A stretch of DNA of 63,798 nucleotides, filler included, from Sluysia triapertura (GCA_046118255.1; 4 parts of 4 records of this genome joined end to end with filler, not necessarily neighbours in it); one strand, 5' to 3'; shown: positions 16,031 through 49,085, numbered from the whole stretch's first letter. Notes: generated by a model not told the origin, from the sequence alone. Numbers and translations are program-made.

Positions 16031-16225
16031 CTGTCATCAGTCGACAGTGCAATTAAAATTCACTCAATATATCATGTTAACAGTCGACTAATGACAGTTG
16101 CCAAGTGCAGCAGTGCGTATTTGCATCAATGTCATCCTGTATACACTATTACTTCAATGTGATTGGACGTCCAATCAACCCTATTTCTGTATATTATCTT
16201 TTCTCTTTTGATTGGACGCCCAATT
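16031..16225 (+). promoter_or_regulatory. Hairpin plus CCAAT-palindrome module upstream of orphan ORF
   Basis: 18-bp inverted repeat 16031-16048/16080-16097 (16/18 match); perfect 18-bp palindrome TGATTGGACGTCCAATCA at 16160-16177; second degenerate copy at 16209-16225. Confidence 0.55.
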
Positions 16226-16403
16226 GTTATCAATGTTGCTGTTTCATAAATAGTTAAAAATTAAATGCATGCATACAGATAGCAGATGGCTTCTCAAGAG
16301 GAAAAACAAAAAATAAAGTGAAGAGATATTGTTGTGTAATAAAAAGTATTAAAAAGAGATAAAATCAATAAAAATTTAACAATTTTTAAATTTAATTATT
16401 AAA

Positions 16404-17399
16404 ATGTTAAATTTAATTGAATGTATAAATTGTAAACGTCGTAATGCTAACATGATCACTTATTATCATTATCACCATATGTATTTTAGTATTCCTACTA
16501 TTAATTCTACTTCGAATAATGTGTTAATTTTACCAAAATTTAAAATCACACCTTATGCCGAAGATATTAGAAAGCTTTATGATTCGAGGCATTGGATGAA
16601 ATTAACATTTTTTAATAGTAACAGGCCGCATTTATATGTATATGTTTATAAAAATAAAAATGATGCTAGATGCAATAATCGAACTGCACATGAACTCGAT
16701 CAATCATTTTATGAACATCAAGATAATAATGTGCTACCTATCATCAATTCCAGAATTAAGAAGCAGATTGATTTATTAGAAATTTTAATATGCTATCATA
16801 TTGAAGTCAAACTTCAGCTTTTAAAAGAACCAAATATATTTCTTAATGTAAAACATTGTATCGTTGAAATCATAAATCTTAATCTTGAACAACACGATTC
16901 TTTATTGCCAAAGTTAAGAGTAATATTGTATGTTTCAGTTGATAACGACCATCAATACCGAATGAGTAATATGCATCAACTTGATCAGGATTTTTTTATA
17001 TCAAACCCGACTTATGAAATTGTTAATGTAACAAGTATAATTGACGCACCCTTATCAACAAATCATGTATGTCATTTCAACAAAAGTTTAAATTACTTAG
17101 TTCTTACTGATAATGAAGCAACATCTACTTCTATTAAATCAAATACGGAATCATTAATTACAAACGTTAAAGAACAAGTTTATTTAACGAATATAAATAC
17201 GCAATACAGTCTTACCAATTCCTGTCTGAGTGATATCACAATACGTAAAGCACAATGTCTTTACCAATCAAATGCTCATGGAGAATGTGCCATGTTCGAA
17301 AATTGTGTACTTTTTATCACAAAATATTTCAAGTTAATGGAGACTACTATGAAGTTTATCACCAAATACAAAGATCGTACAATCTCTTGTCATCAATAA
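16404..17399 (+). CDS. Intronless orphan protein, 331 aa
   Basis: A 996-nt ORF is very unlikely by chance at this AT content; AAAATG start context; internal repeat ending H[EQ]LDQxF; no recognised domain. Confidence 0.65.
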   Translation: MLNLIECINCKRRNANMITYYHYHHMYFSIPTINSTSNNVLILPKFKITPYAEDIRKLYDSRHWMKLTFFNSNRPHLYVYVYKNKNDARCNNRTAHELDQSFYEHQDNNVLPIINSRIKKQIDLLEILICYHIEVKLQLLKEPNIFLNVKHCIVEIINLNLEQHDSLLPKLRVILYVSVDNDHQYRMSNMHQLDQDFFISNPTYEIVNVTSIIDAPLSTNHVCHFNKSLNYLVLTDNEATSTSIKSNTESLITNVKEQVYLTNINTQYSLTNSCLSDITIRKAQCLYQSNAHGECAMFENCVLFITKYFKLMETTMKFITKYKDRTISCHQ

Positions 17400-18258
17400 G
17401 TGAGGATTCCTCTTAAAGCAGGTTTAAAGCCAGTGATCTTCATAATCTTACAAAGCACAAAAACACTAAATCTTGCTCGGTAAGTCACCTAATTCTAAAA
17501 GTGACTTTCAAATTTTTCTTTCATGATTATGACTTTTATTTTTATTTATTACAGTTCAGGAGTTCACAACAGAAGTCTATTACAACAATCGAAAATATGG
17601 ACCTAATGAAAATTAACATAGATTGGTCTATAATTTTAGTTGTAGATATTTCTTATTATATGTTCAAAAATAAAATCTTCCGTAGTGAATTATTCTTTTA
17701 TTTATACGATGAACATTTAAAAAAAGTATCATTTTTAATCGTTTAAAGCAGGAATTTAATAATGTATTTTATTTTTTCTTTAATTGTGGTAAAGATAAAT
17801 TGTACTTTTATTATTGTACATACTTAACTTTAACGCCCTTAAACACAAAAAATATATTGAACTTAATATCAAAACAATTGATACCAAACGTATGTCATCC
17901 AAAAACGATAACCCCAAATGTTGATATAATTATGTCTTCCTGATATGAAAGACTCAAGCTTTGCAGCAGTTATTTGTTCAAACTACTGATGATGTTTCAC
18001 CAGTATTTAGTTGAGGTCATTGAGGAGTTTGAACTTACCCAATAAAATCAAAAAGTCTAAAATAGACTAAAATGTTGCATGAATCGAAAAGTTTGGTACT
18101 CTCGAATTTCAAGAATATATAAGAGAAGTATTCTACGAAATTCATAAAACTGTAACATAATGTACAATTGAAATTAATTAAATGAAATTGATATTTTTAA
18201 TATTTAAACTTATTAAATAAAAAATAAATCAAGAAATAACTTTACAATAACTTTACAA

Positions 18259-19779
18259 TAGGGTGGGTTGAAAAAGAGAAAATATTGGAATAAGTTAAGA
18301 AAGAGTTTGCAATGTGATATGCGACATTCACCAAAAGCTATCACAAGTAATTACTTTGATGGTAGACTAGACACAACTTTGGTCAAAGTAAACAGAAATG
18401 GCAAGTGGTATGGTGACACTACTGTTGAAGATTATTATGTTCTGGTTGAATAACCAGGTAGCAGCTATCTGACACATGTGACGCCTTCATCAGGCAAAAG
18501 TATTGTAACTGTAATTAGAGAGCAAGATGCAAGTGATAGTATTTTAGCAATAGGCTGTGATAGTACAAATGCAAATGTTGGCAGTAAAGGTGGAGTAATT
18601 CGTCATCTAGAGGTGGCTTTAGGACATCCTCTGAATTGGTTCATATGCTTGCTACACACAAATGAACTACCATTGCGACATCTGTTTACAACACTGGATG
18701 GGCAAACATTTGGAATAACGAGTTTCAGTCGTCCCATTGGTCATGAACTTTATCACTGCGAACTGAAACATATTGCTAATTTTACAAAGATTACAAGTCA
18801 ATGCAATATGCCTGCGTTAGATGAGGATGTGTTAGCTAATCTGTCATGTGACCAGAAATATTTGTTTGATATTGTAGAAGTCACTAGAACTGTCGTTGTT
18901 TCTGAAAATTTATCAGCTAGAAAGCCTGCTCCCCTAAATTACTCACGATGGCTTACTTTTACCAGCAGGGTTTGCCGCTTGTGTGTTGCCAGGACAATCC
19001 TTCTGTTAACCTTTGCATCATCACCCATACTTCATTGTAACTAACTATGCTGCAAACTGGTTCACCATAAAGCGCAATACCTCATGCACATATGGTTGCA
19101 AGACATGTCTATCATGCAGCACAACTTCTCAAAGAACTTTCCAGTGAAAATGCTGCTATTGTCAAGCCTACATTAGTTGCGGTGCATATTTTGCTCATTC
19201 CGAAAATATTCTTATTATTCAAGAGCAGTTTCAATACGTCTGTTTAAAGTTCCACCGATTAACTATGATGCGACAAACTACGTTGATCTGATTAACTGGC
19301 ACATTATTCAGGAGCCACCACTCACGATGAAGCTGACAGATGATGATATTGCTAAATTCAGCAATGAGCCACTCACTTAGAATTAGAAGAACCACACTCA
19401 AGGAGTGGAACGTTGATTAAAACTGGTTATAGATGCTTCAAAAGCTGTTTATTCTCGCAATTCAATGCCTCGTTTTGATTCAAAACAAGATAACTTTTTG
19501 CAGTAACTATTTGTTAGAAAAGGACACACCTATATTCTGTGAGTAATTATCATTGCTTGACTTTTGATATTTGCAAACAATATTGATTTACGTTAGGTCT
19601 GTCTCATTATTTGATAAGTCTGCTGTGGTTGTCAATACCATTAAAGCGAGTATTTTCTAAATTAAAATGGGCATTTACAAGTGCCCAGAAATAATTTCTT
19701 TGTGATTTTCTTTTATTTCACATGAAATCGCAAAGTTTTACTGAGTTCCGTGACAAAGTTTTATTTTCAACTCACCATA
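18259..19779 (+). mobile_element. Internally deleted hAT-superfamily (hATm-like) transposon with decayed transposase
   Basis: TIRs TAGGGTGGGTTGAAAA (18259) and TTTTCAACTCACCATA (to 19779), 14/16. Motifs YFDGRLDTT, IGCDSTNANVG.KGGVI, CLLHTNELPLRHL (CxxH), SRWLT, NHTQGVER. Subfamily name from memory; no TSD seen. Confidence 0.8.
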
Positions 19780-47259: not shown

Positions 47260-47260
<1 letters not shown>

Positions 47261-47989
47261 CTTGGATTTGTCCATTAAATTTAGTTTATTTATTTATTTA
47301 AATAAAAATGCTTTGATAAAGAAAGTGAATTAATTAATTGTAATTACAATTTTTTCATCATTAATATCAATTAAATTATTTTCATTAATCTCTTAATTTC
47401 CTTGCATTTCGTAAATAATTTGATAGGTTCTTTAATTCAATTACTTTATAACCTATGAGAACAGTATTAATTGGGGAAAATTCAGAATGTTAGTTTGTTT
47501 CCCTTTTCATTACCTCTTTAGGGTATAGTCTAGTTTAGGTGATGATATATAATAATTATCATTATTGTTTGAAAATATAAACCTCAAAGCCCCTAATATT
47601 ATTTCATTATTTAGGTCTATAATTACTTTGAATTTGAAATATCTACATGATGACACTTTAATTTGGATTATTGAATTGTGAACTGTATATCTTGGTAACA
47701 GGTTATTGAAGGCGACATAATATATCATATTCACTTTTGTTTTGAAATATACAAGATTTTTTATTAATATAAACGCATCTATTAATTAAACAATTATTAA
47801 GTACACTAAAACTAATATTTATTCCATATTAGAAGTTCTTTTTAAAAATTTGTTAATAAATTTTTGAATTATATTATCCGTTCTGTTATTTCGCAATATC
47901 TTTCTCACTGCATCCTTGGTAATCACTTTGAGCAAAAAACTGGAACATAATCCTAAAAAAATTTAAATAGTTAAGATAATGATCAAAAT

Positions 47990-48916
47990 AAATAAAACAA
48001 AATTTTACTGATAATATTTTCTGAAAGTTAATGTTTTCTTCTAGATTTTCATTATTAACTGCGACTAAGGCCAAAATTCCATTTTGTCTGAATCAATGCT
48101 GTTGTTGAATAACTTTATTATCTGCTCTCATTATTCTGCTTAATATGATGCCGTTATCCTTTTGGGTCCCGTACACAATGCATTAGTAGTCTATTTATCG
48201 GATTCTATACATATTCTTTTAACTTTATACATATCTACGACAAGTTTATCTATTTTTACGTTTAATCGGTTAATTAGATACACATCTTCAACAAGTTTGT
48301 CTAATTCGAATTTTGTTAATCTAACTTTATATACATCTTTAAAAGGTTTGTCTACTACTGTTTGAGTCACGTGACCCAAAATACGCTCATTAAGTGGATA
48401 ACGAACAATACTGTCATGACAATCCTTTATAAATTCATTCGGAGCACCATTTATTATTACATCATATAGTTTACTAACTAGCATCAGTTGAAGAGTTACC
48501 AGATCTTTTGTGTTACAATTTTATGATACTCTGGATTGTTAACATGATTAAGATTGTATTTCTTTAATGCAACTTGAACATTGTGCCAGCATTTCGTTTT
48601 GGCCATAATCGTCTTTGATTGTTACTTTTTTAATCCTTTTAAGTTTTTGTAAATAACACTCACCACTTACTACAAGATATCTATTTCCCATAATTTTTAG
48701 TGACGATTTTTGTTTCATTTGAACTTTAAGATAGCCGGATTCTGCTCCCAATGCTTTTTAATATTTATAGAGTGTAGCTACATTGGCAAAGTTAATCATT
48801 ATTTCTATAATTGAAGGTTCGAAAACGCTATTGAAATTTTTAGCCAAGCTGGATGAAGTAAATCTCCTTTTTTAATTAATAATTGTACTTATTTTTATTT
48901 TTAGATTCATGTTCAT
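47990..48916 (-). pseudogene. Decayed intronless orphan gene (~300 codons; includes ORFs 48548-48751 and 48191-48484)
   Basis: Consecutive co-oriented coding-like segments separated by single stops or frameshifts; ATG at 48916 lies downstream of the hairpin module. Confidence 0.5.
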
Positions 48917-48955
48917 AAAATAGGAACTGTAATGTGAAATTCATGAGATTATACC

Positions 48956-49085
48956 TGATTGGATGACAGCAATACGAATAATATTCAGACATACAAGGCC
49001 TATTATCAACAACTAACCATCATCAGTAGTGACAAAATAATGAAAATTTTGACGAGCTGTGTCAATACTGCTGATGGCAGCAACT
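48956..49085 (-). promoter_or_regulatory. Hairpin plus CCAAT module upstream of orphan pseudogene
   Basis: 18-bp inverted repeat 49017-49034/49060-49077 (16/18), 25-nt spacer; GTCATCCAATCA on the minus strand at 48956-48967. Confidence 0.6.

Follow-up and report, generated by a model that had tools for sequence, protein, structure and literature searches.

In vertebrate DECA-CCAAT promoters, TGACAG-type and CCAAT motifs occur together in a short upstream block, with the full DECA decamer (PBX and PREP half-sites) at a spacing of 10–12 bp. CCAAT is the recognition site of NF-Y, and TGACAG is a half-site of TALE homeodomain proteins. The same two kinds of motif are combined in blocks of 150–250 bases, each before an intronless coding frame, at three loci of a 63,798-nucleotide stretch of Sluysia triapertura DNA (GCA_046118255.1), hereafter the window; we number the loci 1 to 3 in order of position. 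Unlike DECA-CCAAT promoters, they lack the full decamer and carry only TGACAG half-sites in oriented blocks, the closest decamer matches being 8/10 at 48960 and 35184 (judged by eye). The motifs are ~64 nt apart in locus 1, ~60 nt or more in locus 2 and 1 nt in locus 3 instead of 10–12 bp, and the sites form inverted pairs ~30 nt apart as well as palindromic double-CCAAT sites.

Helentron/HLE2 elements (DINE-1, HINE), as portrayed in parts of PMC4067079 and PMC11417382, share with the blocks a 5' repeat with a nearby inverted copy, a captured gene fragment and a nearby microsatellite, and possibly a downstream arm with a short stem-loop; they differ in that arms and spacer are longer here and that no verified 3' end, T-T insertion site or Rep/helicase (RepHel) gene accompanies the blocks. 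Arm matches of 10–13 nt lie downstream of all three cargo frames, but each either fails to match the arm of its own locus or falls within an open frame. Pack-TIR/Pack-MULE elements (TIR, terminal inverted repeat) and retrocopies mediated by long terminal repeats (LTRs), according to excerpts of PMC8277862 and PMC5131818, likewise have unrelated intronless or partial genes behind a common element-like end and a 3'-truncated host fragment, whereas here no second TIR or LTR surrounds the cargo, target-site duplications are lacking and the common sequence covers 50–70 bp only. No direct LTR copy was found downstream of the cargo by nhmmer with each block or by self-BLAST of the window. A locus-specific target-site duplication around the inverted repeat, as in miniature inverted-repeat transposable elements (MITEs) or Pack-TIR elements, was not found, with none at locus 1; an 8/9 direct repeat flanks the inverted repeat of locus 3, and the same bases stand to the left of the locus 2 copy and are absent on its right. 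Inverted repeats produced by template switching (PMC5453318 and PMC8794818, in the sections that treat them) resemble those of the blocks in their near-perfect, locus-specific arms that change together without selection, but the process alone does not explain the common motifs, the spacing or the position before open reading frames (ORFs). We assign the block to none of the DECA-CCAAT, Helentron, Pack-TIR/LTR-retrocopy or Rfam kinds.

Paired inverted repeats upstream of three coding frames

Inverted repeats were scanned for with GC-weighted scoring, spacers of up to 60 nt and a threshold of 25.5 bits. Five repeats in the 64-kb window scored at least this value (16162–16224, 22647–22703, 16031–16097, 14225–14309 and 49017–49077), and four of them sit in the three loci, with arms of 15–18 bp and spacers of 25–31 nt. 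Across 100 order-3 Markov simulations, a null that leaves out transposon ends and local duplication, the mean was 0.01 such repeats per window; one simulation had one, and none had one with a 20–35-nt spacer. The blocks are real and non-random. The unit is larger than the single hairpin with CCAAT motifs first described, and consists of a TGACA-rich repeat A followed by a repeat B holding a CCAATCA pair. Locus 1 has both repeats, locus 2 a broken A and an intact B, and locus 3 an intact A followed by a single TGTCA-CCAATCA composite.

In locus 1 (plus strand), the 18-bp arms of repeat A (16031–16048/16080–16097) pair at 16 of 18 positions across a 31-nt spacer, carry TGACAG at both outer ends and have RNA-folding z-scores of -3.7 on the plus and -5.0 on the minus strand. 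Repeat B (16160–16226, arms 16162–16178/16208–16224, 16/17 paired, spacer 29 nt) is made up of two palindromic double-CCAAT sites 49 nt apart. An AT-rich, putatively TATA-like stretch ~25 nt past the last CCAAT (16242–16252) aligns with 22730–22738 of locus 2. Downstream lies an intact intronless ORF of 331 amino acids (16404–17399), an orphan without detected relatives: protein searches yielded none among 377 candidates, none in 1.84 billion representatives and none in viral or prokaryotic contigs, none of four sequences in the collection matched by identity, and Pfam gave no match at E-values up to 1. Comparison with F-type envelope proteins (feature score 0.84, 137 of 256 features in common) provides a weak lead only, and the single-sequence fold is unusable (predicted local distance difference test, pLDDT, 29). 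F-type envelopes have been reported across animals (PMC13524379). Of the three loci, only locus 1, which has both repeats and an intact ORF, could be a working gene. Past the ORF, an isolated arm-like 13-mer of uncertain status (17979–17994, plus strand) matches the locus 3 arm; ACTACTGATGATG, noted earlier as an isolated arm-like sequence at 17982, is indeed present.

Locus 2 (plus strand) retains a remnant of repeat A (22562–22620) in which left arm and loop are homologous to locus 3 and the right arm lacks ~14 nt; it has no stable fold (z -0.3). Its repeat B (22647–22710) carries CCAATCA sites in 15-bp arms (22647–22661/22689–22703, 14/15 paired, spacer 27 nt) and ends in a quasi-palindromic double-CCAAT site resembling that of locus 1. 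The ORF that follows (22813–23310, 165 amino acids) matches the N-terminal part of calcineurin A over residues 5–79 (E = 1e-18), the rest being unrelated sequence. Calcineurin catalytic motifs were not found in the window and nothing among 87 candidates represented the parent calcineurin; the locus 2 fragment is decayed. A second open frame of 150 codons (23337–23826), for which no family match was found, directly follows the fragment. A match of the 23374 frame to one viral contig (8-residue seed, E = 6e-4 among candidates only) was taken as chance.

In locus 3 (minus strand), repeat A (49012–49085, arms 49017–49034/49060–49077) has 18-bp arms with 16/18 positions paired, a 25-nt spacer and flanking bases in common with locus 2. 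It is followed by a single composite site without a partner (48956–48973), TGTCA leading directly into CCAATCA, and by a decayed intronless coding frame (48191–48916) that starts at the ATG at 48916. This frame has five internal stops in 241 codons and no visible frameshift, against 32 and 28 stops in the other frames, and none of 20,000 shuffles reached five. It is a dead gene for which neither a family match nor similarity to the 331-residue ORF was found. The initial annotation had placed CCAATCA motifs and then an ATG after each hairpin, upstream of orphan ORFs. The motifs and the ATGs at 16404, 22813 and 48916 are all there, but the frame at 48916 reaches a stop after 14 codons and heads a decayed gene, and the label of orphan, apt for the ORF at 16404, fails for the calcineurin A match at 22813.

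The fifth repeat (14225–14309, 16/17 paired, 51-nt spacer) has no CCAAT block and is placed within a long, stop-riddled coding-like frame (13509–14650) for which no family match was found. Its position outside any block suggests that such repeats arise here by mutation.

Descent of the copies and symmetry of the arms

Loci 2 and 3 have a stretch of ~70 bp in common (z 15), in which 25 of 27 left-arm and 15 of 21 loop positions are identical, followed by a ~14-nt gap to which locus 2 owes the loss of most of its right arm; self-comparison of the window recovers the pair at 83% over 48 nt (E = 1e-6). Judged from this alignment, the ~70 bp are shared by descent, loop included. The initial annotation was accurate on these points: 22562–22588 matches 49085–49059 at 25/27 with most of the partner arm lost, and the coordinates and counts given for the 18-bp arms with 31- and 25-nt spacers at 16031–16097 and 49017–49077 are correct. 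Loci 1 and 2 have the double-CCAAT site in common (16/19), and the ~50 nt past it align weakly, in a 54-nt alignment that takes in the AT-rich TATA-like stretch and is equalled in score by 2 of 80 window pieces. A 10-mer in repeat A of locus 1 is common to the other loci, and four of its five matches with at most one mismatch in the window fall in blocks. No further block copies were found in the window. Since three-way MAFFT alignments leave the stems out of register, base pairs were counted by hand from a table of the arms.

The arms had been described as differing between loci yet staying complementary within each, and selection on symmetry had been proposed. Three positions vary in the stem of loci 2 and 3, each altered on one arm only, and the covariation check on the alignable copies accordingly gave no compensatory, two-sided change (0/3). 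Locus 2 kept its left arm and lost most of the right, arm and loop conservation do not differ significantly (25/27 vs 15/21, P = 0.11), and an equal repeat, the fifth, lies in unrelated decayed coding DNA; on three copies, selection on symmetry is not supported. The one symmetric change, which agrees with the proposal, separates locus 1 from loci 2 and 3, the same indels being present in each of its arms (one comparison, with a doubtful alignment); at locus 2 the pairing has been lost. The joint indels are also explained by arm-to-arm copying without selection, and such copying by template switching is reported, in the passages of PMC5453318 and PMC8794818 on this process, both to make and to perfect inverted repeats. 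We give an even chance to the view that the symmetry was inherited and is not actively kept, as part of the promoter reading set out below.

A putative promoter cassette and its alternatives

Our preferred interpretation, to which we attach about equal belief and doubt, is that the blocks represent a CCAAT/TGACA promoter cassette for RNA polymerase II, now decaying, that spread by copying from one locus to another, with a mobile element as the probable agent, and that its repeats stem from clusters of binding sites duplicated in inverted orientation. A block comprises a TGACA(G) cluster, one to four CCAATCA boxes and an AT-rich TATA-like stretch, with the ATG 40–310 nt on; motifs, geometry and position suggest promoter activity, with NF-Y as the putative binder of CCAAT and a TALE homeodomain protein as that of TGACAG. 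An ancestral site cluster may have been copied in reverse ~30 nt away, which would have produced the paired sites and with them the inverted repeats. The cassette, most likely the end that bears the promoter in a mobile element or in a duplicated segment, would then have been copied between loci and have come to precede unrelated intronless cargo; such copying is shown for the 70 bp of loci 2 and 3 and, weakly, for 54 bp of loci 1 and 2. Loci 2 and 3 are decaying.

In all three cases the block is followed, 40–310 nt downstream, by the ATG of a long or decayed frame with codon-position bias. The chance of lying 40–350 nt before such a start is ~0.18 per site under a loose definition and 0.006 for three, so the positional link to ORF starts, proposed earlier, stands. 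CCAAT boxes are found 40–245 nt before the ATG across the loci; a CCAAT box usually stands within ~60–100 nt of the mapped start site. CCAATCA occurs six times against 0.09 expected and TGACAG four times against 0.25, counts that are partly circular because the blocks were chosen on these motifs. The TGATTGGA core also occurs without a hairpin at 35178 (beside TTGACA), 50485 and 62414, so the motif does not need symmetry, and it may be common promoter vocabulary of this genome. A/T trinucleotide repeats lie just upstream of loci 1 and 3. In planarians, promoters with tissue-specific activity are reported to contain both CCAAT boxes and repeats of A/T trinucleotides (PMC10558129), a likeness that we regard as an analogy only.

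Islands resembling promoters and containing TGATTGGA were also seen at 34870–35200 and 50400–50520; the first has TGATTGGA fused to TTGACA as in locus 3, and a 17-nt imperfect direct repeat occurs near 34890 and 34945. An intact intronless gene for a divergent protein kinase (7627–8541; Pfam E = 1e-15, best PDB match TTK) has TTGACA and CCAAT 130–160 nt upstream without a hairpin.

Several observations weigh against the cassette. The copies number only three, and they have no stretch in common that could be aligned in every one of them. Repeat A of locus 1 was not recovered by a profile of the 22.6- and 49-kb copies, which leaves the 10-mer and the geometry as the grounds for deriving it from the same ancestor as loci 2 and 3. 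Neither the flanks upstream and downstream of the blocks nor the cargo align between loci. NF-Y prefers a purine before CCAAT, and most sites here have a T. The 11-bp DECA-CCAAT spacing is absent from the blocks, and a second terminus, target-site duplication or transposase tied to them was not found. The near-constant spacer of 25–31 nt in four repeats is unexplained by simple mutation. Finally, the arm divergence of 2/27 is low if both lineages decayed like the locus 3 frame (~10–20% by simulation); the probability of so few changes is 0.21 at 15% divergence and 0.005 at 30%, so that the arms may be under some constraint.

The same blocks have been weighed under other explanations. Repeat A, as a sub-terminal repeat with an inverted copy close by, could be the 5' end of non-autonomous Helentron/HLE2 rolling-circle elements with captured cargo, the arm-like 13-mers downstream being 3' sub-terminal repeats, each then followed by a short stem-loop. 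An 11-mer of the locus 3 arm does recur at 17982 and 23425, just past the ORFs of loci 1 and 2 (1.7% of random 18-mers recur as well, before allowing for the nine arms tested), with 6–7-bp hairpins of similar arms 60 and 30 nt after these sites (candidates chosen after looking); a 10-mer arm match at 46565 also has a hairpin (background ~0.1 per 100 nt), and the captured calcineurin fragment fits. We nevertheless hold this to be unlikely: the 23425 site and its hairpin lie within the 150-codon open frame and probably represent codons, the 17982 site corresponds to the locus 3 arm instead of that of its own locus 1, the downstream regions do not align, the first base of the sequence common to loci 2 and 3 is an A preceded by C or T, with no T-T insertion site, no RepHel was found among the 30 + 111 window frames scanned, and the spacers exceed the 3–22 nt of DINE-1. 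Rather improbable, too, is that the blocks are ordinary native promoters of fast-turnover genes sharing a transcription-factor grammar, with repeats that each formed in place through short-range template switching, a local duplication being invoked for the 70 bp of loci 2 and 3 alone. The occurrence of the motifs without hairpins elsewhere in the window, the fifth repeat outside any block and the capacity of template switching to form and perfect such repeats without selection (PMC5453318, PMC8794818, both in part) agree with it; yet four repeats with 15–18-bp arms and 25–31-nt spacers in three promoters would be a tight coincidence, the cargo is intronless and mostly decayed, and the blocks cluster at assembly gaps.

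The intact repeats fold with z-scores of -2.2 to -5.0, measure 57–67 nt in all and have initiator-like TCAGT/TTAGT in their arms, as would suit structured RNAs that serve as small-RNA precursors or as 5' leaders; their transcription might run in the direction opposite to the ORF, from CCAAT boxes 65–70 nt behind. This is very unlikely, as the window has no Rfam match at the gathering threshold and the best over the repeats do not go below E = 0.7, loops of 25–31 nt are too large for microRNA processing, compensatory changes are lacking (0/3), and the CTGATGA words are not followed by the GAAA of a hammerhead (by eye). Recombination sites with symmetric arms, or replication origins, in either case with their pairing preserved by selection, had been listed beside a promoter and a cassette junction as possible roles and would account for the constant geometry, the shared indels in both locus 1 arms and the nearby assembly gaps; we consider them very unlikely indeed, given that one copy is broken and none compensated and that no recombinase or Rep gene lies nearby. 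Of that list, motifs and ORF position favour the promoter; for the other roles nothing was found, the flanks do not align, and there are no homology breakpoints at the hairpin besides the ends of the 70-bp unit. That unrelated chance features were grouped by eye is extremely unlikely: the profile of loci 2 and 3 missed locus 1 and several thresholds were set after looking, but the repeat counts against simulation, the 70-bp homology and the common 10-mer (4/5 matches in blocks) speak otherwise. Hammerhead ribozymes, C/D and H/ACA small nucleolar RNAs, a transfer RNA primer-binding site, a CRESS nonanucleotide origin and Polinton ends were dropped by inspection, as was a transposon of 26.5 kb with loci 2 and 3 as its ends, which has no target-site duplication and is interrupted by a linker gap.

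If the blocks are a promoter cassette as we prefer, its presence before unrelated intronless genes at differing stages of decay would make it a testable promoter supply in a little-studied animal; how new and copied genes acquire promoters is an open question. If they are merely three decaying copies of a common CCAAT layout, they would be a minor lineage-specific feature. A more far-reaching version, which we also think unlikely, is that an undescribed gene-capturing element carries a portable promoter built from a TGACA pair and a CCAAT pair, each an inverted repeat with the same spacing, and has repeatedly set it before captured host fragments and unrelated ORFs, with sub-families whose arm symmetry is kept while they are active and with locus 1 as a living product. 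Such an element would be a source of orphan genes. A description of this cassette was not found in literature searches, which were not aimed at the organism.

Genomic setting and other features of the window

The window has a G+C content of ~24% and, going by its spliced EFHC2 exons (61% identity to mollusc and trematode proteins), the DNA is of animal origin. Conserved genes are present only as pieces: a decayed kinesin fragment (3004–3495), a single potassium-channel exon (45068–45370) and EFHC2 residues ~244–556 (51952–54653). Besides these pieces, the window holds immunoglobulin (Ig) and CCCH fragments, an intronless kinase, remains of transposons and a number of decayed frames. Three gaps consist of 44 N, a six-frame stop linker and 44 N, and one is a plain run of 139 N. 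A DYRK2-like exon (15556–15659, E = 1e-7) runs into the first linker gap; its continuation was not found past the gap, nor were further DYRK motifs in the window, so that pieces flanking linker gaps may be non-neighbours and the contigs on the two sides of the first gap may be unlinked. One linker-bounded piece contains loci 1 and 2, and the next contains locus 3. An assembly gap lies upstream of each block, the three distances being, in ascending order, 28, 272 and 758 nt (within 800 nt, 0.05 per site, a threshold chosen afterwards), as is expected beside repeats; the gaps concerned are at 15660, 22396 and 49843. Five sequencing runs are listed for 15760–22395, none of them an RNA run; the word share was 0.69 in one and 0.05–0.07 in four, small shares that are no evidence.

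DNA pattern scans gave no match in viral contigs and none in metagenome contigs with a 23-nt arm. A relaxed two-arm pattern returned 27 loci in metagenomes, and none of them could be aligned with the window or with the profile; of the four best-looking, the three inspected proved to be unrelated repeats internal to bacterial ORFs. As most of the content of these collections is prokaryotic, blanks in them say little on copy number in the animal's own genome. In bacterial ORFs beside restriction-modification genes (L003:573–637, L005:1501–1562 and L025:1501–1565), which resemble YhcG/DUF1016 genes, a palindromic DNA site occurs twice, ~45 nt apart, inside coding sequence with a repeated VSS-MTQ peptide; the sites are convergent with, and unrelated to, the arms in the window.

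Broken frames at 18262–19400 are GC-richer (35–41%) and have FDGR and CxxH-type motifs; we take them to be transposase-like, and Pfam gave no transposase match for them. A ~500-bp element is present in two diverged copies (21050–21545 and ~51500–51920, 71% over 228 nt), the first with TA-flanked terminal inverted repeats that resemble Tc1/mariner or Stowaway-type MITE ends. Each MITE-like copy is adjoined by a C/A-rich, strand-biased stretch (21560–22260 and 50480–51100).

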